DNA of 64,000 bases from the NCBI GenBank assembly GCA_017380635.1, contig JAFODP010000008.1:49199-113198 (forward strand). The letters are read 5' to 3'. The translations under genes were made by a program, and so were the position numbers. Position 1 is the first letter of the stretch, and each line of letters opens with the position of its first letter. The notes beneath the pieces are model-generated. The model worked only from the letters and a program-made list of their open reading frames with translations. It searched no databases and was not told where the DNA came from. The stretch is from Bacteroidales bacterium (lineage in GTDB: Bacteria > Bacteroidota > Bacteroidia > Bacteroidales > UBA1402). This document shows positions 32,282-42,423 of the stretch, piece by piece.

Positions 32282-33196
32282 ATGGCTCATCGGCTGACAC
32301 GTGCGAATTGGTTATGGCAAGTAGCCTTCCTGCTTTTTATGCTAAGCAGTGGGCTATTTGCCTTCTTTCGTAGCGATTTAGCTTGGTGGCGCATCTTATT
32401 GCACGCCGTATTGGTGGGCGGAAATGCCGTTTTATTGCAATTATTGGTAAGACAATTCGAACTATTGGGATCGCTCAGTATTTTCCCGGCCACCATCTAT
32501 TTCCTGTTAAACGCCTTCTGCCCCAACTTCATTCCGGAGCCGCAAGCCTACCTGGCCTCGGCCTGCCTGATGATGACCTGCCTGAGTATTTTCAATTGTT
32601 ATCAGCAGAACGAATGTCGGGTAAAAGTGTACAATGCTTATTTCTTCTTGTGCATGGCAGGCATTTTCATTCCGGGTTTACTGCTACTGATTCCCATCAT
32701 CTGGATCAGCTTCAACCTAATCAACACACTGAATATCAAAAGATGGCTAGCCTCTTTATTGGCCGTCATCACGGTAGTTGGAAGCATCTGCGCCCTGGCC
32801 TTTGTCTTTGATGCCGAACAGCGCCTACTCCTGATTTTCACCCGCAGTGTAGAGAATTTCTATGCCGCCATCTTTCTGAAAGCCGAAGAATGGATATTTC
32901 TGGCCGGCCTAACAGTGCTATCCATCATCGGGATTTTTCACTTTTTGAATCAAGGACAACGCAGCCGACGCAACAGCATTCGCTATTTCAACAGTTTCCT
33001 GATTATCATCGGATTGTTTTGCGTGGCCATGATGTTCCTGTTTTCGCCGCTGCGACATCAATACCTGATTTTGGCCGCACTGCCCTTCTCCATCATTTTG
33101 GGGATGTACTTCAACGACGTGCAACATCTATTCAGCCGAATACTGATAATACTTTCGCTGGCTGTTGGCTGTGTCTATTGTCTGAGTTTTATTTGA
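32282..33196 (+). CDS. Polytopic integral membrane protein (unknown function)
   Basis: 304 aa and hydrophobic throughout, with about 8-9 predicted TM segments. No catalytic motif recognised. Confidence 0.5.
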   Translation: MAHRLTRANWLWQVAFLLFMLSSGLFAFFRSDLAWWRILLHAVLVGGNAVLLQLLVRQFELLGSLSIFPATIYFLLNAFCPNFIPEPQAYLASACLMMTCLSIFNCYQQNECRVKVYNAYFFLCMAGIFIPGLLLLIPIIWISFNLINTLNIKRWLASLLAVITVVGSICALAFVFDAEQRLLLIFTRSVENFYAAIFLKAEEWIFLAGLTVLSIIGIFHFLNQGQRSRRNSIRYFNSFLIIIGLFCVAMMFLFSPLRHQYLILAALPFSIILGMYFNDVQHLFSRILIILSLAVGCVYCLSFI

Positions 33197-34832
33197 CGCG
33201 AATCACCATGCGTTCGCTTGCGCTTTCTTGATGCAGACGGTTGAAAGCGCTGACATGATATACCCACTCTCCGGCATGCGGATGTGAAGGCAAACTAAAA
33301 TACGGCTGACGAACAATGCCCACAATAGCTCGCGGATCTTGCAGATTTTCAGCCTCTCCCAAAGGGAAACGATAGATAACGAAATATTTGGCGCGTTTCA
33401 TTTCTTGACGCGAACGAAGCGTCTTCCATGCCAAATGCGTTCCCTTTTCAAAATCGTAATGCAAGTCCAAAGCGTAAACAGGCTCGGGAAGCACCTGATA
33501 ATCACGGTTGTCGGCGGGAACCAAAGCCGGATAAGCATGCCAGGTATTTTTCAGACTATCACAAACACCGCCATAATCGGCTTCCAACTCGTAAGCCGGA
33601 AAAAAGCAATTGCCCTGCACACCTGCCTGCTCACGCGCTTGTAACATCTTGGCACTCAGCTGATGAGGCTTCATCGTACGAACCACATCCTGACCAATAT
33701 ACATCGCAGCTCCAAAACTGTGATTGGCCCACCATTCAAGCAAAGTACTATAATCGGCAAGCGGATGACCAATTTCCCAATAAAGCTGTGGAATACAATA
33801 ATCTATCCATCCTTCACGCATCCAGGTGAGCGCATCGGCATAAAGATCGTCGTAATTGCTCAGGCCATTCGTGCGACTGCCATCCGGATCTTGTTTCAGA
33901 TTGCGATGAATACCGAAAGGACTGATACCAAAACGCACCCAAGGCTTCTCTTCGCGAATGACACGATGCAAATCGCGCACCAAAGTGTTCACATTGTTTC
34001 GTCGCCAATCGGCCTTCTGCGAAGAAGTAAATCCCTGTGACGCAGCATATTTGGCAAAACTTTTATCGTCGGGAAATTCCAAACCGGCCTGCGGATAAGG
34101 ATAAAAATAATCGTCCATGTGGATACCGTCGATATCGTAATTGCGGACAATCTCGCGCACCACTTTCAGAATATGCTGCTGCGACTCGGGCAAACCCGGA
34201 TCCAACCAAAGACTGCGTCCGTAATGCAACATCAAATGACGGTTCTTGCGCACGAAAGGCTCCTTATAATCAGCCTCTTTCACCGTCAACTTGACACGAT
34301 AAGGATTAATCCAGGCATGAATATCCATATTGCGACGATGACAAGCTTCGGTAAGATAAAAGAGCGGATCCCAGCCGGGGTTCTTGCCTTGCTTGCCCGT
34401 GATAAAGCAACTCCAAGGCTCGTAGGACGATTTATACCAGGCATCGCATTGCGGACGCACCTGAAACAACACCACATTGATACCGGCACTTTGCAGACTA
34501 TCCAGCAGATTCTCAAAATAAATCATCATCTGGAAGTCGGTCATCTGCGCATACTTAGTTTGGTTGATGGTACTGATCCACGCACCTCGAAATTCCGCTT
34601 TCGGCGGAAGCACAGACTCCGTTGAAACCGAAGCAGACAAAGACAAAGCAGAAGCAGACACCGAAGCCGAAGCTGAAACCGAAACCGAAACCGCCGAAGA
34701 CGAAGCAGAAGCAGAAGCTGACGCAGACGAAGCAGAAGCTGACGCCGCCGAAGACGAGGAAGCCGAGGCCGGTAATAAAGTCATCAGCGAAAGCAAAATC
34801 GTAAGTATCAGACTTTTACCATTCATAAACAT
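33189..34832 (-). CDS. Glycoside hydrolase-like family 10 (GHL10/DUF187, YngK-type) secreted protein
   Basis: FRGAWISTINQ..., TIM-barrel-like blocks IDGIHMDDYFYP and GISPFGI. Start taken at ATG 34832 (MFMNGKSLILTILLSLMTLLPASA). The track's extension to 34898 would overlap rnz. Confidence 0.7.
   Translation of the reverse strand: MFMNGKSLILTILLSLMTLLPASASSSSAASASASSASASASASSSAVSVSVSASASVSASALSLSASVSTESVLPPKAEFRGAWISTINQTKYAQMTDFQMMIYFENLLDSLQSAGINVVLFQVRPQCDAWYKSSYEPWSCFITGKQGKNPGWDPLFYLTEACHRRNMDIHAWINPYRVKLTVKEADYKEPFVRKNRHLMLHYGRSLWLDPGLPESQQHILKVVREIVRNYDIDGIHMDDYFYPYPQAGLEFPDDKSFAKYAASQGFTSSQKADWRRNNVNTLVRDLHRVIREEKPWVRFGISPFGIHRNLKQDPDGSRTNGLSNYDDLYADALTWMREGWIDYCIPQLYWEIGHPLADYSTLLEWWANHSFGAAMYIGQDVVRTMKPHQLSAKMLQAREQAGVQGNCFFPAYELEADYGGVCDSLKNTWHAYPALVPADNRDYQVLPEPVYALDLHYDFEKGTHLAWKTLRSRQEMKRAKYFVIYRFPLGEAENLQDPRAIVGIVRQPYFSLPSHPHAGEWVYHVSAFNRLHQESASERMVIRVK
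34610..34765 (-). repeat. Ser/Ala(/Val) low-complexity linker encoded by trinucleotide-type repeats
   Basis: Encodes SSSSAASASASSASASASASSSAVSVSVSASASVSASALSLSASVSTESV directly after the signal peptide. The plus strand shows reiterated gaagc(a/t)ga units. Confidence 0.85.
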
Positions 34833-35730
34833 CACCCTCCTGTGCAGCAAAACTTGATGGAAAAACACTTCGTGCCTCGTCCAACAAAACTTTTTCATCG
34901 GGATAACGAGCCGAATAATGACCGAGAATCAATTTTTCCACAGCAGCGGCCTTGGCAATCTGAGCCGCCTGCAAAGCCGTGGAATGTTGGGTATATTCCG
35001 CCAAAGACAAATGTTCCTGAGAAAAAGTTGCTTCGTGATAGAGCATTTGCACACCTTGTAAATAAGGAATAAGTTTCTCATTATAAGCCGTATCTGAGCA
35101 ATAAGCATAAGACTTGGGAGCCTCAGCCTCGCGTACCAAAAATCGATTTGGAATCACTTCGCCATCGGGCGTTACGAAATCAGCACCTGCTTTAATGGCC
35201 GGATATTGCGGCAATGGAATCTGATAAAAATCGGCTTTATCCTTGATAATGTGCGGCATACGAGGCTTTTCCTTAATAAGAAAACCGGTGGAACAAACTC
35301 GATGAATCAAAGGCAAAGTGTAGACTTCCCAATTGCGATCCTCGTAAATGAGCGCATATTCCCGAGGGTTAAATGGCTGAAACTGAACCTCAAACTTATT
35401 TTCGCGACAGAAATAATCCATCTGCGGACGAATCAAAGCCTCCAAATCGGGATGAGCATGAATGCGCAAAGGCGCCGTCCGACCCAGCAAACTCAACGTT
35501 GAAATCAGGCCAATCAGACCAAAACAATGGTCGCCATGCAAATGCGAAATAAACACATCGCTTATCTGATTGTAATTGAGCCGAGTCTTACGAAACTGAA
35601 GCTGCGTACCTTCGCCACAATCTATCATAAACAACTTACCTCGCAAGTCGAGAACCTGCGAGGATAAGTGATGTTTACTGGTCGGTAAAGCCGAACCACA
35701 ACCCAAGATATGGAGTTTGATTTTGCTCAC
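34816..35730 (-). CDS. rnz: Ribonuclease Z
   Basis: Metallo-beta-lactamase motif ISHLHGDHCFGL. N-terminus KLHILGCGSALPT. 304 aa. Confidence 0.92.
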   Translation of the reverse strand: MSKIKLHILGCGSALPTSKHHLSSQVLDLRGKLFMIDCGEGTQLQFRKTRLNYNQISDVFISHLHGDHCFGLIGLISTLSLLGRTAPLRIHAHPDLEALIRPQMDYFCRENKFEVQFQPFNPREYALIYEDRNWEVYTLPLIHRVCSTGFLIKEKPRMPHIIKDKADFYQIPLPQYPAIKAGADFVTPDGEVIPNRFLVREAEAPKSYAYCSDTAYNEKLIPYLQGVQMLYHEATFSQEHLSLAEYTQHSTALQAAQIAKAAAVEKLILGHYSARYPDEKVLLDEARSVFPSSFAAQEGDVYEW

Positions 35731-37154: not shown

Positions 37155-38555
37155 TTATGCGAATACTCCCATTTTGAGCAAACCAACTTCGCGTTCTGTC
37201 AAATGTCTCCATTTACCGCGAGGAAGATTCTTTTTGGTCAAACCGGCAAAGTACACGCGATCGAGTTTATACACTTTGTAACCGAATTTTTCGAAAATAC
37301 GACGTACTACACGATTTTGGCCTGAGTGAATTTCCAAACCAATCACATTGGGCTTTTCGTTCACGTAGCTAATTTCGTCGATAGCAATCATTTCGCCTTC
37401 CAAATCAACACCTTTGGCAATTTCGTCCATCACTTCCTGAGGCAGATCTTTGTCGAGCGTAGCCTGGTAGATTTTGCGCTTTTCGTATTTGGGATGAGCC
37501 AATTTAGAAGCCAAGTCGCCATCGTTGGTCAGCAAGAGCACACCAGTGGTATTGCGGTCGAGACGACCCACAGGATAAATACGTTCGTAGCAAGCATTCT
37601 TTACCAGATCCATCACGGTAAGACGTTCTTGGGGATCTTCGGAAGTAGTCACACAATCCTTGGGCTTGTTCAAAAGCACATACACCTTACGTTCGATGCG
37701 TACGGGCTGATCGTGGAACATCACCTCGTCGGTAGGCATTACCTTAACACCCAATTCGGTAGCGATTTCGCCATTCACTTTTACCACACCAGCCTGGATA
37801 TATTCATCGGCTTCACGACGAGAACAGATACCTGCGTTAGACAAGAATTTGTTCAAGCGGATAGGCGTTGTGGGATCCAAGTTGGGCGCATATTTAGGTG
37901 CTTTGAAATCGTTTTCGGCCAACCATTCGGGGTTTTCTCTCTTACCACCGATTCTGGGGCGACGAGGACGATCGAAATTATTCTTGTCGAAAGAACGACG
38001 TTCGCCGTTGAAAGAGCGTTCACCATTGAAAGAACGATCTCTGTTGAAGGTACGTTCCTTACCGATAGCACGTTCGTTGTTGTTATACGATTTGCGTTCG
38101 CCACCATTGTACGAGCGACGTTCGCCAAAATTGCGTTCGCCGTTGAAATTGCGTTCGCCACCTTCGTTATTGAAACTGCGACGAGGACGATCGTTGTTGA
38201 AACTTCTGCGTTCGCCAAAATTGCGTTCCGAATTGAAAGAACGTTCACCGCCATTGTACGAGCGACGTTCGCCGAAATTGCGTTCGCCACCTTCGTTATT
38301 GAAACTGCGACGAGGACGATCGTTGTTGAAGCTTCTGCGTTCGCCAAAATTTCGTTCTGAATTGAAAGAACGTTCACCGCCATTGTACGAGCGACGTTCA
38401 CCATAACTGCGTTCGCCACCTTCGCGGAAATTACGACGCGGACGATCAAAATTTCTTTCTCTTCCGTAACTGCTACGGAAATCATTACCTTCACGGCCGG
38501 CATTGTAGGCACCTTCCTCAGGCTTTCCCTGCCATTTTTCGTTTCCAGTTGTCAT
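37155..38555 (-). CDS. rluB: Pseudouridine synthase (RluB/RsuA family) with ~215-aa N-terminal Arg/Gly/Glu/Asn/Ser/Phe-rich repeat extension
   Basis: S4 domain IRLNKFLSNAGICSRREADEYIQAGVVKVNG and catalytic block VGRLDRNTTGVLLLTNDG. The N-terminus is built of GERRSYNGGERSFNSERNFGERRSFNNDRPRRSFNNEGGERNF units. Confidence 0.88.
   Translation of the reverse strand: MTTGNEKWQGKPEEGAYNAGREGNDFRSSYGRERNFDRPRRNFREGGERSYGERRSYNGGERSFNSERNFGERRSFNNDRPRRSFNNEGGERNFGERRSYNGGERSFNSERNFGERRSFNNDRPRRSFNNEGGERNFNGERNFGERRSYNGGERKSYNNNERAIGKERTFNRDRSFNGERSFNGERRSFDKNNFDRPRRPRIGGKRENPEWLAENDFKAPKYAPNLDPTTPIRLNKFLSNAGICSRREADEYIQAGVVKVNGEIATELGVKVMPTDEVMFHDQPVRIERKVYVLLNKPKDCVTTSEDPQERLTVMDLVKNACYERIYPVGRLDRNTTGVLLLTNDGDLASKLAHPKYEKRKIYQATLDKDLPQEVMDEIAKGVDLEGEMIAIDEISYVNEKPNVIGLEIHSGQNRVVRRIFEKFGYKVYKLDRVYFAGLTKKNLPRGKWRHLTEREVGLLKMGVFA
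38090..38409 (-). repeat. 129-bp tandem duplication (~2.5 copies) within the rluB 5' region
   Basis: 38152-38280 and 38281-38409 are near-identical, with a few substitutions over the first ~115 nt. A partial copy precedes them at 38090-38151. The period is 129 nt, i.e. 43 codons. Confidence 0.9.
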
Positions 38556-38585
38556 TGTTTAAGCACTTAAAAATTAATCGATTAA

Positions 38586-39932
38586 TTACATACCGGTATA
38601 AGTATCCGGCTTAATATTGCGTAATTCGGCCTTCACGGCTTCAGATACGTTCAAAGTTTCGATGAAAGCAGCGATTGACTGCTCGGTGATAGCTTCGTTG
38701 GTGCGGGTAAGCGCCTTCAAAGTTTCGTAAGGATTGGGATAAGCTTCGCGACGGAGAATGGTCTGGATACCTTCCGCCACCACTGCCCAGTGATTTTCCA
38801 AGTCGTTCTGCAAAGCTTTTTCGTTGAGCAAGAGCTTGTTCAAACCTTTCAAACTGCTGGTGAAAGCAATCAACGAATGAGCGAAAGGCATACCGATGGT
38901 ACGAAGTACGGTAGAGTCGGTAAGGTCGCGCTGCAAACGAGATACAGGCAATTTAGAAGCCAGATAATCGAGCAATGCGTTGGCTACGCCGATATTACCT
39001 TCCGAGTTTTCAAAATCGATGGGATTTACCTTATGAGGCATGGCCGACGAACCCACTTCGCCCGCTTTGATTTTCTGTTTGAAATATTCCATAGAAATAT
39101 ACATCCAGAAGTCGCGGTTCATATCCTTCACGATAGTGTTGATGCGCTTCATGCCGTCGAAGATAGCGGCCAGATTGTCGTAGTTTGAAATCTGTGTGGT
39201 GTACATTTCGCGCTTCAAGCCCAATTTTTCAGACAAGAACTTAGCACCAAATTCGGGCCAATTTTCGTTGGGATAAGCCACATGATGTGCGTTGAAATTA
39301 CCGGTGGCACCACCAAACTTAGCAGAGAAAGGCAATTGTTTCAGTAAAGCCAACTGTTCGTTCAAACGATAAACGAAGACCTTAATTTCCTTGCCCAAAC
39401 GTGTGGGAGAAGCCGGCTGACCATGCGTCTTTGCCAACATTGCCACATTCGACCAATCGTTGGCATATTTATCCAAACAGTCGATAAGTTCTTGCAAAGC
39501 AGGATAATACACATCTTCCAAAGCTTCCTTGATAGAAAGAGGCACCGAAGTATTGTTGATATCCTGAGAAGTGAGACCAAAGTGAATGAATTCCTTGTAT
39601 TCAGCCAAGCCCAAACGATCGAAAGCTTCCTTGATGAAATATTCCACCGCCTTCACATCGTGATTGGTAGTAGCTTCGATGGTTTTCACGCGTTGCGCAT
39701 CGTCCAAGCTGAAATGACGATAAATATCGCGCAAAGATTCCAATACATCTGCGGGAACCGTTTTTAACTGAGGAAGAGGCATTTCGCACAATGCGATAAA
39801 ATATTCCACCTCTACGCGAACACGATAACGGATAAGGGCGTATTCCGAAAAATAATGGCCAAAGGCTTCGGTTTTACTGCGATATCTTCCATCCACAGGA
39901 GTAATGGCAGTCAAAGAATTCAAATTCATCAT
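38586..39932 (-). CDS. purB: Adenylosuccinate lyase
   Basis: LTAITPVDGRY and the fumarate-lyase signature GSSAMPHKVNPIDFEN. 448 aa. Confidence 0.95.
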   Translation of the reverse strand: MMNLNSLTAITPVDGRYRSKTEAFGHYFSEYALIRYRVRVEVEYFIALCEMPLPQLKTVPADVLESLRDIYRHFSLDDAQRVKTIEATTNHDVKAVEYFIKEAFDRLGLAEYKEFIHFGLTSQDINNTSVPLSIKEALEDVYYPALQELIDCLDKYANDWSNVAMLAKTHGQPASPTRLGKEIKVFVYRLNEQLALLKQLPFSAKFGGATGNFNAHHVAYPNENWPEFGAKFLSEKLGLKREMYTTQISNYDNLAAIFDGMKRINTIVKDMNRDFWMYISMEYFKQKIKAGEVGSSAMPHKVNPIDFENSEGNIGVANALLDYLASKLPVSRLQRDLTDSTVLRTIGMPFAHSLIAFTSSLKGLNKLLLNEKALQNDLENHWAVVAEGIQTILRREAYPNPYETLKALTRTNEAITEQSIAAFIETLNVSEAVKAELRNIKPDTYTGM

Positions 39933-39970
39933 AATAAGCTTATTAATATACCTTGTATAAATAGGGGGTG

Positions 39971-40001
39971 CAAAATTAGTGCAAACCGAGCGGAGAACAA
40001 A
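39971..40001 (-). promoter_or_regulatory. Bacteroidota-type promoter for purB (TTTG-N19-TAATTTTG on minus strand)
   Basis: Plus-strand caaaatta at 39971-39978 and caaa at 39998-40001, with 19-nt spacing, about 40 nt upstream of the purB ATG. Confidence 0.6.
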
Positions 40002-40020
40002 ATAAATTGTATGATATTTT

Positions 40021-40320
40021 CCAGATTCGAGCGAAGATAAAGCGATAGCTTGCTATCGAACTTTATCGAGGCTCAGATGAGACGATAGCTCGCTATCGGA
40101 TTTTATTGAAGCCGATATAAAGTGATAGCTTGCTATCAAACTTTATTGAAGCCGGTATAAAGTGATAGCTTGCTATCAAACTTTATAGAGGCTTTGATAA
40201 AGTCGGGAAGCTTGCTTCCCGCTTTATTGAGCAAAAATAAAATTGAAATACTGCTTCCGGCTTTATCGAAGCGAGAAATAAAACGGATAGTCAGCCTCAT
40301 ACTTTATCGAAGCGAGAAGA
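40021..40320 (+). repeat. Tandem array A: ~40-bp unit x7 with internal hairpin (GATAG-CTTG-CTATC type) and conserved CTTTAT(C/T)GA(A/G)GC block
   Basis: The CTTTAT motif recurs at 40061, 40101, 40141, 40181, 40222, 40261 and 40302. Palindromes: 40043-40058 cgatagcttgctatcg, 40083-40098 cgatagctcgctatcg, 40123-40138 and 40163-40178 tgatagcttgctatca, 40204-40221 cgggaagcttgcttcccg. The last two units are degenerate. Confidence 0.85.
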
Positions 40321-40324
40321 TGGA

Positions 40325-40354
40325 GAAAAACAAAAACGATGGTTTTTGTTTTTC
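40325..40354. other. Perfect 13-bp A/T-rich inverted repeat (GAAAAACAAAAAC-gatg-GTTTTTGTTTTTC), terminator-like on either strand
   Basis: Read directly from the sequence. It lies exactly between repeat arrays A and B. Confidence 0.7.
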
Positions 40355-40370
40355 CGAGGTGCAGCCTAAT

Positions 40371-40560
40371 TCGCGAGTCCCGCAGGGGCGAGAAAATTAG
40401 TGTAAAGCTCGAAAAAAACGCAGTGAGCGAAAAGAGGTTTGCATCGCGAGCCCCGCAGGGGCGAGAAAATTAGTGCAAAGCTCAAAAAGAACGAAGTGAG
40501 CGAAAAGAGGTTTGCATCGCGAGCCCGCAAGGGCGAGAAAATTAGTACAAAGCCCGAAAA
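40371..40560 (+). repeat. Tandem array B: 73-bp unit x3 (third truncated/diverged) with GC hairpin and a 14-nt copy of the purB promoter core
   Basis: Units start at 40371, 40444 and 40517 (tcgcgag...). Units 1 and 2 differ at about 5-6 of 73 positions. Hairpins are GCCCC-gca-GGGGC (unit 2), GUCCC-gca-GGGGC with a U.G pair (unit 1) and GCCC-gcaa-GGGC (unit 3). Each unit carries aaaattagtgcaaa or a one-mismatch variant, identical to 39972-39985. Confidence 0.85.
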
Positions 40561-40644
40561 CACCCCCATCACTGACGAAAAACACAGTGCCAAAGCCAAA
40601 AAAACGCCCAAAACAACATTTTTTCAAAAAAAATCATCAAATAA

Positions 40645-40675
40645 TTTGCAGATATAAAAATAAGCCGTATCTTTG
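40645..40675 (+). promoter_or_regulatory. Bacteroidota-type promoter for tRNA-Val (TTTG-N19-TATCTTTG)
   Basis: TTTG at 40645-40648 and TATCTTTG at 40668-40675, 22 nt upstream of the tRNA 5' end. Confidence 0.65.
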
Positions 40676-40697
40676 CACCGCTTTTCGAAAGAAACAC

Positions 40698-40772
40698 GGG
40701 CGCTTAGCTCAGCTGGTTCAGAGCATCTGCCTTACAAGCAGAGGGTCGGCGGTTCGAATCCGTCAGCGCCCA
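40698..40772 (+). tRNA. tRNA-Val (anticodon UAC)
   Basis: Manual cloverleaf: acceptor GGGCGCU/AGCGCCC, D-arm GCUC...GAGC, anticodon arm UCUGC-CUUACAA-GCAGA, T-arm GGCGG-UUCGAAU-CCGUC, discriminator A. 75 nt, no encoded CCA. Confidence 0.95.
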
Positions 40773-40778
40773 CAACCC

Positions 40779-40820
40779 AAAGCAGTTACAACGATGTTGT
40801 AGCTGCTTTTTCTTTTTATC
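40779..40820 (+). terminator. Rho-independent terminator after tRNA-Val
   Basis: 14-bp stem AAAGCAGTTACAAC-gat-GTTGTAGCTGCTTT (one G.U pair), followed by TTCTTTTTAT. Confidence 0.8.
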
Positions 40821-41013
40821 CTGAAAACCAACGCCAAAACCTCCAAGAATCTGAATTTATCATCTAAAAATCCATCCACACCATTAATACAAATTGGTAC
40901 ACTTTAACATTTCTGAACAATTTTACACCTTTTTAGTTAAAATTATCCCTACATTTGCCACCGAAGAAATTACAATTTAACTAAATTGGCTGATTCTGTT
41001 ATTGAAAGAGAAG

Positions 41014-41589
41014 ATGGAGAAAGCTACACTTTATTACGAGAAAATCAAAAAGGCCGTCGAAAATACCATCGGCCGAAGCATGCATACTACCAAAGATTTC
41101 GACTATCTGGCTATTTGTATACGAGAACGCACCAACTGCAGCATCAGCGCCATGACGCTGAAACGTTTTTGGGGATATTTAGGAAAAAAGAATATGCGTC
41201 AACCGCGTCTGGATACACTCAACATCTTGGCGCAGACCTTAGGCTACACCGATTGGTATAGCTATTGCAGTAGCGATTCACATCACACCAAATCGCAAAG
41301 CGACTTTATACTCAACAACTATCTGAGCAGTTCTTCCCTGGAAGCCGGCGCAGAACTCCGCATCATGTGGCATCCCGATCGCTGCCTGCATGTACGTTAC
41401 GAAGGGAACAACAACTTCACCATCATCGAAAGCATCAACAGTAAGCTTAGCGCGAACGACACCTTCACTTGCAGCTTGATTCTGGAAAACGAACCGCTCT
41501 ATCTCAGCAACCTGATTCACGAAGGCGGAGAGCCTTGTCATTATGTATGCGGCAGAATTGATGGAGTTAAATATCTCATTATCAAATAA
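41014..41589 (+). CDS. Hypothetical protein with putative N-terminal HTH-like domain
   Basis: The track ORF starts at a TTG (41002); the first ATG is 41014. The N-terminal block FDYLAICIRERTNCSISAMTLKRFWGYLG...LDTLNILAQTLGYTDWYSY looks HTH-like. The C-terminal ~100 aa are unassigned. A TACATTTG box lies at 40949-40956. Confidence 0.5.
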   Translation: MEKATLYYEKIKKAVENTIGRSMHTTKDFDYLAICIRERTNCSISAMTLKRFWGYLGKKNMRQPRLDTLNILAQTLGYTDWYSYCSSDSHHTKSQSDFILNNYLSSSSLEAGAELRIMWHPDRCLHVRYEGNNNFTIIESINSKLSANDTFTCSLILENEPLYLSNLIHEGGEPCHYVCGRIDGVKYLIIK

Positions 41590-41613
41590 AATGAGGGGAG
41601 GGGGGATTTTAGC

Positions 41614-42423
41614 ATGGCTACATCCGAATTTCTTAAGGAAACGGAGCCTTTCGAGCAAATCGAGAGTCTTCCCTGCGGAGGCAGCACTTCGCTCTGCTAT
41701 CGCGTGCGCAAGGACGGGAAAGACTACTTCATGAAAAAACTCCGCCCAGAGTTCAGGGATAATCAACGCTATCGCATGCTTTTCCACAAAGAACTCGAAA
41801 TCGGAAAAAACCTTCGCAACAAGTATTTTGCCAACTATCTCTCTTTACACGAGAACAAAGATGATATCTATTTAATTATGGATTTTATCAACGGACAATG
41901 CCTGGAAGAAACACTCAAGGTTAATCCTGGCTATTTTACCCTAGCCCACAACTACGAAAAATTTTTCATTCAGCTACTGAAGGGGCTTCGCATATTGCAC
42001 AGCAAAAACATCGCCTATCTCGACCTGAAGCCGGAAAACATTCTCCTGACGCAAGTCAACAACGACGTAAAAATCATCGATTTAGGATTCTGTTTGGACG
42101 ACACTTACGGTCAAACTGCCGGATACAACAAAGATTTCGCCGCACCCGAACTATTCAACAACAACGGCAAAGATATTGATGCTCGCAGCGACATCTATTC
42201 TTTTGGAAAGTTGATGCTTCATATCAACAAAATCTGTGTCATTAAGCACATTTCATTATTCCGAAAGAAAATTCTGAATAAATGCACACAAGAAAATCCG
42301 GAAGACAGATTCTCCAGCGTTGATGAGATTTTGCGCTACATCAATCGCAGAAAACAAATTTTAGCATTTACCGTTTTCTCGATGATTATCAGCATAGCAG
42401 GATTCTTCTTCGGATTCTATTGA
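41614..42423 (+). CDS. Hanks-type Ser/Thr protein kinase with single C-terminal transmembrane anchor
   Basis: Gly loop LPCGGSTSLCYRV, Lys in DYFMKKL, catalytic loop IAYLDLKPENILL, IIDLGFC (DFG-like) and FAAPELF (APE). C-terminal TM segment ILAFTVFSMIISIAGFFFGFY. Confidence 0.8.
   Translation: MATSEFLKETEPFEQIESLPCGGSTSLCYRVRKDGKDYFMKKLRPEFRDNQRYRMLFHKELEIGKNLRNKYFANYLSLHENKDDIYLIMDFINGQCLEETLKVNPGYFTLAHNYEKFFIQLLKGLRILHSKNIAYLDLKPENILLTQVNNDVKIIDLGFCLDDTYGQTAGYNKDFAAPELFNNNGKDIDARSDIYSFGKLMLHINKICVIKHISLFRKKILNKCTQENPEDRFSSVDEILRYINRRKQILAFTVFSMIISIAGFFFGFY

Follow-up and report, generated by a model that had tools for sequence, protein, structure and literature searches.

The window, by which we mean the whole stretch of 64,000 nucleotides that was analyzed, belongs to an uncultured member of the Bacteroidales from ruminant-gut metagenomes whose sister lineage is represented by the MAG Bacteroidales bacterium RGIG4528. 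Within the window, purB and a tRNA-Val gene are separated by a spacer of 765 bp that contains two tandem arrays and two A/T-rich hairpins (Table 1). The surrounding genes are housekeeping ones and encode AspS, an RluB-like pseudouridine synthase, PurB, a Ser/Thr kinase, RibF, peptidases and RNase HII. The 10 ORFs scanned within about 7 kb around the 40-bp array include no cas, transposase or recombinase gene, and no partition or regulator genes were found near it. An adjacent orphan gene for a 191-aa protein, which has no match in Pfam, NCBIfam or PDB, has 50 homologs in related gut Bacteroidales, in each case with a Ser/Thr kinase gene following it; a link between this gene and the array was rejected because no arrays are present upstream of these homologs.

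Transcription signals were sought with the consensus TTTG, 17-23 nt, TAnnTTTG, a pattern that promoters of alternative sigma factors would escape. There are just five perfect matches in the 64-kb window, and two of these are the purB and tRNA-Val promoters. Between positions 39900 and 40720, these two are the only consensus matches, and neither strand has one directed into the array. The array lies upstream of the purB promoter, with about 30 bp between them, in agreement with the original prediction, which had placed it between this promoter and tRNA-Val. Downstream of the tRNA-Val gene lies a conventional T-run terminator hairpin (approximately 40780-40818); the array hairpins, unlike this one, have no T-run and were rejected as intrinsic terminators. 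Judging from these signals, the part of the spacer that holds the array between the divergent promoters is apparently untranscribed.

Table 1. Features of the purB-tRNA-Val region (positions within the window)
Feature	Coordinates	Strand	Details and source
purB, adenylosuccinate lyase (Lyase_1 + ASL_C)	38586-39932	-	transcribed away from the array
purB promoter, Bacteroidetes type	39971-40001	-	TTTG 40001-39998, 19-nt spacer, TAATTTTG 39978-39971
Degenerate A/T hairpin AAAATA..TATTTT	39999-40020	.	between the purB -33 element and the array; sequence read
40-bp array	40033-40313	.	sequence, TRF, repeat finder, pattern, folding, covariance model
Unit U1 of the 40-bp array	40033-40072		
Unit U2	40073-40112		
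Unit U3	40113-40152		
Unit U4	40153-40192		
Unit U5	40193-40232		
Unit U6	40233-40272		
Unit U7	40274-40313		
Perfect 13-bp A/T-rich hairpin	40325-40354	.	GAAAAACAAAAAC-GATG-GTTTTTGTTTTTC; closes the 40-bp array
Second tandem array, 73-bp unit, 2.6 copies	40371-40560	.	TRF, repeat finder, sequence, promoter scan
tRNA-Val promoter	40645-40675	+	TTTG 40645-40648, 19-nt spacer, TATCTTTG 40668-40675
tRNA-Val(TAC)	40698-40773	+	transcribed away from the array

Direct reading of the sequence shows seven head-to-tail units of 40 or 41 bp, all in direct orientation. Each unit consists of a spacer of 4-5 nt, an outer arm (ATAAAG), an inner arm, the apex AGCTYGCT, the second inner arm, the second outer arm (CTTTAT) and the box NGARGC. 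The units abut; the segment between consecutive hairpins is the conserved box, and the hairpin is the variable part. The previously noticed spacing of 39-41 bp stands, as do six of the seven reported CTTTAT blocks (starting at 40061, 40141, 40181, 40222, 40261 and 40302), whereas the block at 40101 reads TTTTAT, with one mismatch. Perfect palindromic arms around CTTG or CTCG are indeed present in five of the seven units, with the three arm types that had been described: CGATAG/CTATCG in U1 and U2, TGATAG/CTATCA in U3 and U4, and CGGGAAG/CTTCCCG in U5. The outer stem ATAAAG/CTTTAT lengthens each hairpin to about 12-13 bp. The CUUG loop was also recognized correctly, as G(CUUG)C on the plus strand, and is equally a feature of the DNA. 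With abutting units, no cas genes within about 7 kb and no conserved ORF, the absence of unique spacers, cas genes and a plausible ORF is borne out, and a CRISPR array was rejected on the first two of these grounds together with the lack of unique spacers. A coding repeat was likewise rejected, the 40/41-bp period being out of frame, and so was a 54-aa minus-strand ORF (40136-40300), which is called only in the window-type allele and is gone in the other alleles.

The array was recovered by several procedures. TRF detects an array with a period of 40 at 40035-40186 (3.8 copies, 82% matches, score 185), and the repeat finder gives a copy spacing of exactly 40 bp and, in addition, a 41-bp pair at 40235-40316. 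Allowing up to 1 mismatch, the window contains the pattern ATAAAG-N18-CTTTAT five times, always within the array, compared to 0.16 occurrences expected and none in 100 shuffles. A covariance model built from the units of all alleles, those of the window among them, and run with filters off, matched exactly seven consecutive plus-strand units at 40033-40313 with E values of 5e-10 to 8e-6, and over the 64-kb window there was no copy beyond the array (next best E about 0.85). In folding calculations, the whole array reaches z-scores of -11.3 on the plus strand and -9.0 on the minus strand relative to shuffled sequences. Units U1-U5 fold well; U6 and U7 are decayed and have no hairpin (z about 0).

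Both A/T-rich hairpins and the second array resemble the 40-bp array in their behavior. The hairpin at 40325-40354 (DNA fold of -11.9 kcal/mol, z -5.2) is found in all lineages, with a compensated variant in one of them, AAAAACAAAGC-AATT-GCTTTGTTTTT in L002, and it looks like a terminal unit of the 40-bp family because it is followed by the box-like CCGAGGTGC. The hairpin at 39999-40020, degenerate in the window, is a perfect 10-bp palindrome, AAAATAAAAC-NN-GTTTTATTTT, in L002, L017 and L030. The 73-bp units each contain a short hairpin of their own (TCCCGCAGGGG, CCCCGCAGGGG and CCCGCAAGGG) along with a minus-strand sequence, TTCG-N19-TAATTTTC, that is a degenerate version of the purB core promoter; there are 1-4 copies of this unit among strains, and its stems covary (GGCAC-AAA-GTGCC and GGTAC-GAA-GTACC). 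Stem turnover like that of the 40-bp array is thus seen in the 73-bp units and in both A/T hairpins, suggesting a mutational process that acts on the region rather than one selected element.

The two arrays are found at the same borders in three lineages, namely, lineage A (the window, which is identical to L001, L004 and L010, together with L003 and L005-L009), lineage B (L002 and L231-233) and lineage C (L017 and L030, from the sister MAG RGIG4528). Strains with identical PurB proteins, in which the third-position identity of purB is 93-96%, have one unit (L009, L002), four (L005), five (L006), seven (the window) or eight (L003), with a spacer of 379-765 bp and 1-4 units of the 73-bp array. 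One-unit alleles are common (L009, L002, L231-233). These alleles come from short-read metagenome assemblies, often broken in repeats, so that some of the mosaics described below could be assembly chimeras; for the window allele as well as for the L005 allele, three different samples gave identical assemblies. In the sister lineage (PurB 98% identical, purB third-position identity 73%), the array occupies the same borders and consists of 6-7 different units of 33-45 bp, several of which have no right arm. The next relative (L035-L043; PurB 91%, third-position identity 57%) retains the purB/tRNA-Val synteny with a spacer of 175 bp that contains neither the 40-bp nor the 73-bp array, and neither array is present in relatives at 81-85% PurB identity. 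By eye, no terminal inverted repeats are seen at the borders of the approximately 600 bp of extra DNA relative to L035, and a MITE-type insertion was therefore rejected. Two clusters at 98% PurB identity, P0001 and P0002, whose contigs stop 56-296 bp upstream of purB, inside the repeats, contributed lineage-B single-unit alleles only.

Searches beyond these lineages produced little. A scan of 185,579 species, one genome each, with the unit pattern yielded 19 matches compared to about 17 expected by chance, and the sole genuine match was the same locus in RGIG4528; the pattern catches only about one unit in seven, and some 20 or more dispersed copies would probably show. Thus, the array is a single-locus element of one narrow clade and is evolutionarily young. 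The original prediction had named units confined to this one locus of this one strain, with no conservation, as an outcome that would count against it, and most of this outcome is observed: the array is limited to a single locus and to a narrow range that does not extend to the next relative, although the sister MAG also carries it. Rfam models at E <= 10 over positions 38500-42000 gave the tRNA as the only real match, three miRNA models lying far below threshold; this upholds the earlier statement that the array matches no known ncRNA family, and an Rfam RNA family was rejected since nothing besides the tRNA came near the gathering score. A plasmid or phage origin was rejected because blastn found no match to the array in plasmid and phage records, and a replication origin or terminus because the cumulative GC skew declines steadily from one end of the window to the other and never switches. 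Scans of metagenome and viral contigs anchored on the loop (AGCTYGCT, three times) retrieved, among the matches listed, unrelated tandem repeats and nothing homologous to the array. In the metagenome scan, tandem 32-41-bp arrays of GTAG-tagged hairpins with the apex GAGCTTGCTC were observed in unrelated bacteria (L052, L065, L083, L151); these were selected by the loop pattern of the scan itself and have no sequence in common with the array beyond the loop.

This distribution bears on the possibility that the array is a local cluster of REP/BIME-like mobile hairpins, built by a hairpin-specific HUH/tyrosine transposase of the RAYT kind. The array resembles REP elements in consisting of extragenic imperfect palindromes of 20-40 bp that may cluster, and the GTAG-tagged arrays mentioned above show that REP-type elements form tandem arrays, with the reservation that they share just the loop used to find them. 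The functions proposed for REP elements, in supercoiling or mRNA stability, are just as unproven for the array. REP palindromes, however, are marked at one end by a conserved GTAG or CGTC tag (PMC3733652), and such a tag is found on neither strand of the array. Moreover, the array is not a high-copy or dispersed family, being present at a single locus in the 64-kb window and, with a pattern that catches about one unit in seven, at a single locus in the RGIG4528 genome; its units are directly oriented with stems that differ between adjacent units, and no transposase is encoded within about 7 kb. A match to a known REP family, which the original prediction had listed as an outcome that would refute it, thus fails on tag, dispersal and the lack of a nearby transposase, and an origin of this type appears very improbable.

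Comparison of the units across alleles reveals clear covariation of the arms. Among 13 distinct 18-nt cores, 81% of the cells are paired, compared to 71% in shuffles; both sides change in four of the seven pairs, and the covariation score was reached by none of 500 shuffles. Further perfect inner stems include CCGACAG/CTGTCGG in L002 and AAAAGCCTG/CAGGCTTTT in L017 versus AAAAGCTTG/CAAGCTTTT in L030, and the outer stems across alleles are ATAAAG/CTTTAT, CAGATGA/TCATCTG or GGC/GCC. Conservation is higher in the apex AGCTYGCT and the box NGARGC than in the stems, and the 13 distinct cores show little or no variation in AGCTTGCT. An orthologous comparison, L017 unit 5 versus L030 unit 4, shows one C-G to T-A change. 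The claim that the arms always change together is correct for the window but fails across strains, where we observe mismatched stems (CGATAG..CTATCA in L003, CAGATAG..CTATCAG in L030 and CAGATAG..CTATCGG in L017) and, in L017 and L030, some units of 33 bp that lack the right arm altogether. Only about half of the 30 distinct units reach z <= -2.5, the others being decayed or truncated hairpins, and 3-4 of the 6-7 units of the sister species have no hairpin. G.U pairs are limited to stem ends.

These features could in principle belong to a structured RNA, that is, a transcribed multi-hairpin ncRNA or a long purB leader that starts from the promoter-like 73-bp units on the minus strand. The constant loop (AGCUUGCU; AGCAAGCU on the minus strand) and the single-stranded box would then bind a partner, as in a protein-sponge RNA, and the stems would vary freely provided that pairing holds. 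G(CUUG)C is a stable RNA tetraloop, and its presence fits this explanation, as do the covarying arms, the greater conservation of loop and box, the folding z-scores of about -11 and -9, and the fact that the array has lasted since the sister lineage split off. A path from C-G through C.A to T-A (L003 unit 3 versus U3/U4 of the window) would use a U.G wobble on the minus strand, and the TTCG-N19 element of the 73-bp units faces purB, with a box that shifts together with the real promoter in L002 (TATCTTTG alongside TATCTTTC). Against this, no consensus promoter leads into the array on either strand and both neighboring genes diverge from it; the promoter-like boxes of the 73-bp units deviate from the consensus at the G of each TTTG element, and an A/T hairpin stands between these units and the array. 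The array also lacks a T-run terminator comparable to that downstream of tRNA-Val, it is missing from the relative at 91% PurB identity, one-unit alleles are common, half of the units are decayed, and G.U pairs are not found inside stems. Inference of the strand from wobble pairs was rejected because the cases are few and the hints from the 40-bp and 73-bp units conflict. All things considered, a structured RNA seems unlikely. The interpretation of the covariation as selection for RNA pairing, put forward in the original prediction, is therefore unsupported: the promoters point away from the array, it occurs in one narrow clade with one to eight units, half of them decayed, and template switching mimics the pattern.

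The same conserved positions might be read as protein-binding DNA. The quasi-palindrome GRNAGC-TT-GCTNYC would be an operator- or centromere-like site for a dimeric protein, and the repeats would tune the expression of purB and tRNA-Val or organize the local DNA in a layout like that of the F plasmid sopC. This possibility is compatible with the near invariance of AGCTTGCT in the 13 distinct cores, with the exact 40-bp distance between sites in the window and with the location of the array next to two promoters, regulators being known to bind directly upstream of promoters. However, half-site positions -4, -5 and -7 vary and covary between the arms, which is not what independent half-sites of a dimer predict, and the units of the sister species, at 33-45 bp, do not maintain helical phasing. 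Furthermore, partition or regulator genes are lacking nearby, the adjacent orphan gene occurs elsewhere without such an array, and the number of sites ranges from 1 to 8, with the array missing in close relatives. We regard a protein-binding array as rather improbable.

The alleles themselves provide clues to the origin of the units. Unit U6 of the window is composed of the left part of L003 unit 6 and the right part of L003 unit 7, with the junction in the shared TGCTTC, and at this junction the window and L003 differ by one 41-bp period. The single unit of L009 combines the left part of U1, the core of U5 and the right part of U7, and U2 of the window joins a left half of the L005 unit 2 type to a standard right half. 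The alleles thus are in-register mosaics, as would result from slippage or from units exchanging unequally. In L005 unit 2, the usual right flank (..TTTATTGAAGCC) is replaced by TCATCTGAGCC, which is an exact 11-nt reverse complement of the left flank GGCTCAGATGA, including the box of the previous unit, and about 10 differences are clustered in 21 nt. The same inverted copy is found in L003 and L006, with one later mismatch in each. This perfect 11-bp inverted copy appears to have been gained in one step, leaving a footprint like that of template switching. Template switching during replication yields compensatory-looking changes without selection (PMC8794818). As in that study, one arm was made an exact reverse complement of the other, perfect at first and then decaying; unlike the conserved RNA genes analyzed there, the array is non-coding and apparently untranscribed repeat DNA. 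Given the neutral divergence of about 4% between strains with identical PurB, paired point substitutions arising independently would be much too infrequent to account for the stem turnover.

With moderate confidence, we interpret the array as a young, lineage-specific palindromic minisatellite (VNTR) that is shaped by slippage and hairpin-templated copying and has no specific product. These two processes explain the array better than a conserved structured RNA does. We infer both mechanisms, as well as the lack of function, from the arrangement of the alleles and the sequence context. Units would be gained and lost in register through slipped-strand mispairing or unequal recombination between neighboring units, probably favored by hairpins arising at the replication fork, where the DNA is single-stranded. 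The arms would be kept or made complementary by template switching within a strand, the polymerase using one arm as the template for the other, and this could create perfect inverted repeats in one event that resembles compensatory substitution. The perfect palindromes would subsequently decay through ordinary point mutation and deletion. No sequence-specific product would be needed, and the only likely phenotypic effect would be the variable length and variable cruciform potential of the DNA upstream of two promoters.

Several observations run counter to the minisatellite interpretation. The arm covariation is clear and the apex and box are conserved, and a selected hairpin with a recognized loop would look alike. 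The array has persisted since the split of lineages A and C (73% third-position identity), a long time for a neutral, unstable repeat. The template-switching component is based on one clear footprint. We assign a low probability to a functional, fast-evolving multi-hairpin element made up of the array and its 73-bp neighbor, either a decoy or the product of an undescribed hairpin-specific array-building enzyme. In the decoy version, a lineage-specific RNA or single-stranded DNA could be read by a protein through the AGCTTGCT apex and the NGARGC box, with the stems drifting under the pairing constraint. If this were the case, the GCTTGC apex in the unrelated metagenome hairpin arrays would reflect a shared structural requirement.

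Among known repeat systems, the array falls by definition under the bacterial VNTRs or minisatellites, exemplified by the MIRU-VNTR loci of Mycobacterium tuberculosis. The array shares with them head-to-tail intergenic units of tens of base pairs (within the range of about 10-100 bp), a copy number that is polymorphic among close strains, and in-register gain and loss. It differs in that its units are hairpin-forming quasi-palindromes with stem turnover, that it occupies a single locus instead of forming a dispersed family, and that the 40-bp period is not a multiple of three, with no embedded ORF. The boxB module of the pneumococcal BOX elements is about 45 bp long, intergenic and present in variable tandem copies with a predicted stable secondary structure, and the array is a similarly long, structured, intergenic tandem unit of variable copy number. 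BOX elements, however, occur in more than 100 dispersed copies in which boxB is flanked by boxA and boxC modules, whereas the array is found at one locus, in a different phylum and without such modules.

The F plasmid sopC site consists of 12 tandem 43-bp units, located beside sopAB, each with an inverted repeat bound by SopB. The units of the array, of about 40 bp and each centered on a short inverted repeat, are similar in layout; in sopC, however, the binding sequence is constant and the period strict, whereas the arms of the array differ, its period varies in relatives, and there is no adjacent cognate partition gene. Sponge RNAs of the CsrB/RsmZ type likewise combine a series of stem-loops, a constant loop motif and variable stems with the status of discrete transcripts that have their own promoter and terminator and are conserved across genera. 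For the array, neither promoter, terminator nor such conservation was found, and, judging from the promoters, it does not appear to lie inside a transcription unit.

The main value of this locus is cautionary. Arms that change together are observed here in a young, unstable, apparently untranscribed and half-decayed element, and because template switching and in-register recombination give the same picture, covariation among paralogous repeat units is no proof of a selected RNA structure. Should the array prove to be transcribed or bound by a protein, it would add a new lineage-specific regulatory element to a phylum in which few non-coding elements have been characterized. In either case, the locus could be employed as a strain-typing marker for this ruminant-gut Bacteroidales lineage and as a natural system for the origin and decay of palindromes between divergent promoters.

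Every unit of the 73-bp tandem array in the purB/tRNA-Val spacer contains a small hairpin with stems that covary between strains (CCCC-GCA-GGGG, GGCAC-AAA-GTGCC and GGTAC-GAA-GTACC forms) and, on the minus strand, a degenerate copy of the purB promoter (TTCG-N19-TAATTTTC; the promoter itself is TTTG-N19-TAATTTTG, related site 39963-39985). In L002, the lineage B allele that encodes a PurB protein identical to that of the window, three of its four 73-bp units share one variant with the promoter (TATCTTTG / TATCTTTC), which suggests that the promoter either has been duplicated repeatedly or is engaged in gene conversion with these units. The unit copy numbers given here, including the 1-4 73-bp units found between strains, come from short-read assemblies and call for confirmation by long reads, as short-read contigs repeatedly stop inside the repeat region. 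In particular, the ends of contigs L225-L233, which carry the PurB variants P0001 and P0002 (98% clusters), fall 56-296 bp upstream of purB, within the repeats, and this locus is a recurrent assembly breakpoint in the short-read data for this species.

The 40-bp array is flanked by two A/T-rich hairpins, which may serve as insulators or terminate transcription weakly in both directions. The left hairpin is a perfect 10-bp palindrome (AAAATAAAAC-NN-GTTTTATTTT) in L002 and in L017 and L030 of the sister lineage (MAG RGIG4528), and a compensated variant of the right hairpin is present in L002.

Features in and around the purB/tRNA-Val spacer (window positions)
Feature	Position	Strand	Remarks
Imperfect coding tandem repeat, GAAGC-rich	34630-34768		periods 18-27 bp
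GHL10-family gene	33189-34898	-	
RluB-like pseudouridine synthase gene	37155-38555	-	S4 + PseudoU_synth_2
129-bp in-frame tandem repeat in RluB-like gene	38145-38424		2.2 copies, 95%
A/T-rich hairpin, left of 40-bp array	39999-40020		degenerate in the window
A/T-rich hairpin, right of 40-bp array	40325-40354		perfect 13-bp stem
73-bp tandem array	40371-40560		2.6 copies, 91% matches
Orphan protein gene	41014-41589	+	191 aa
Ser/Thr kinase gene	41614-42423	+	

Sequence searches of Pfam, NCBIfam and PDB returned no match for the orphan protein encoded beyond tRNA-Val. Its 50 homologues apparently belong to related gut Bacteroidales, and the Ser/Thr kinase gene follows the orphan gene in the window and in all homologue loci examined; the kinases encoded at L237 and L239 have lengths of 542-545 aa and contain LRR_5. 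The two genes constitute a conserved module with no assigned function. The motif TTGGTACA, a candidate operator of this module, recurs upstream of the 191-aa gene, with a single copy in the window (~40893-40902), and forms the direct repeat TTGGTACAnTTTGGTACA downstream of tRNA-Val in L017 and L030 and upstream of the 190-aa gene in L239.

The metagenome contigs L052, L065, L083, L151, L162 and L056 contain GC-rich tandem arrays, unrelated in sequence, in which a unit of 32-41 bp is repeated up to 12 times. Each unit is a hairpin that shares the apex GAGCTTGCTC with the 40-bp array, a recurrence that is not evidence of enrichment because this loop was demanded by the search pattern. The arrays of L052, L065, L083 and L151 have GTAG ahead of the hairpin, a REP-like feature, and the L151 array also includes inverted copies. 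An AT-rich non-coding region of the 260-kb IMG/VR contig L203 (~1010-1140) contains four hairpins spaced ~35 bp apart, with the common apex AAGCTTGCTT and different stems (AAAAAGC.., GGAAAAGC.., GGGAAAGC.., GGAAAGC..); the architecture is that of the 40-bp array and the sequence is unrelated.

Tandem repeats are also present in coding sequences of the window. The 129-bp repeat, a second variable repeat 1.5 kb away from the 40-bp array, is located in the N-terminal low-complexity region of the RluB-like protein, which consists of 448, 461, 466 or 473 aa in strains with identical PurB, some of which have a shorter or split gene call. In the GHL10-family gene, the GAAGC-rich repeat is located close to the 5' end, and its product is probably an acidic linker of low complexity.
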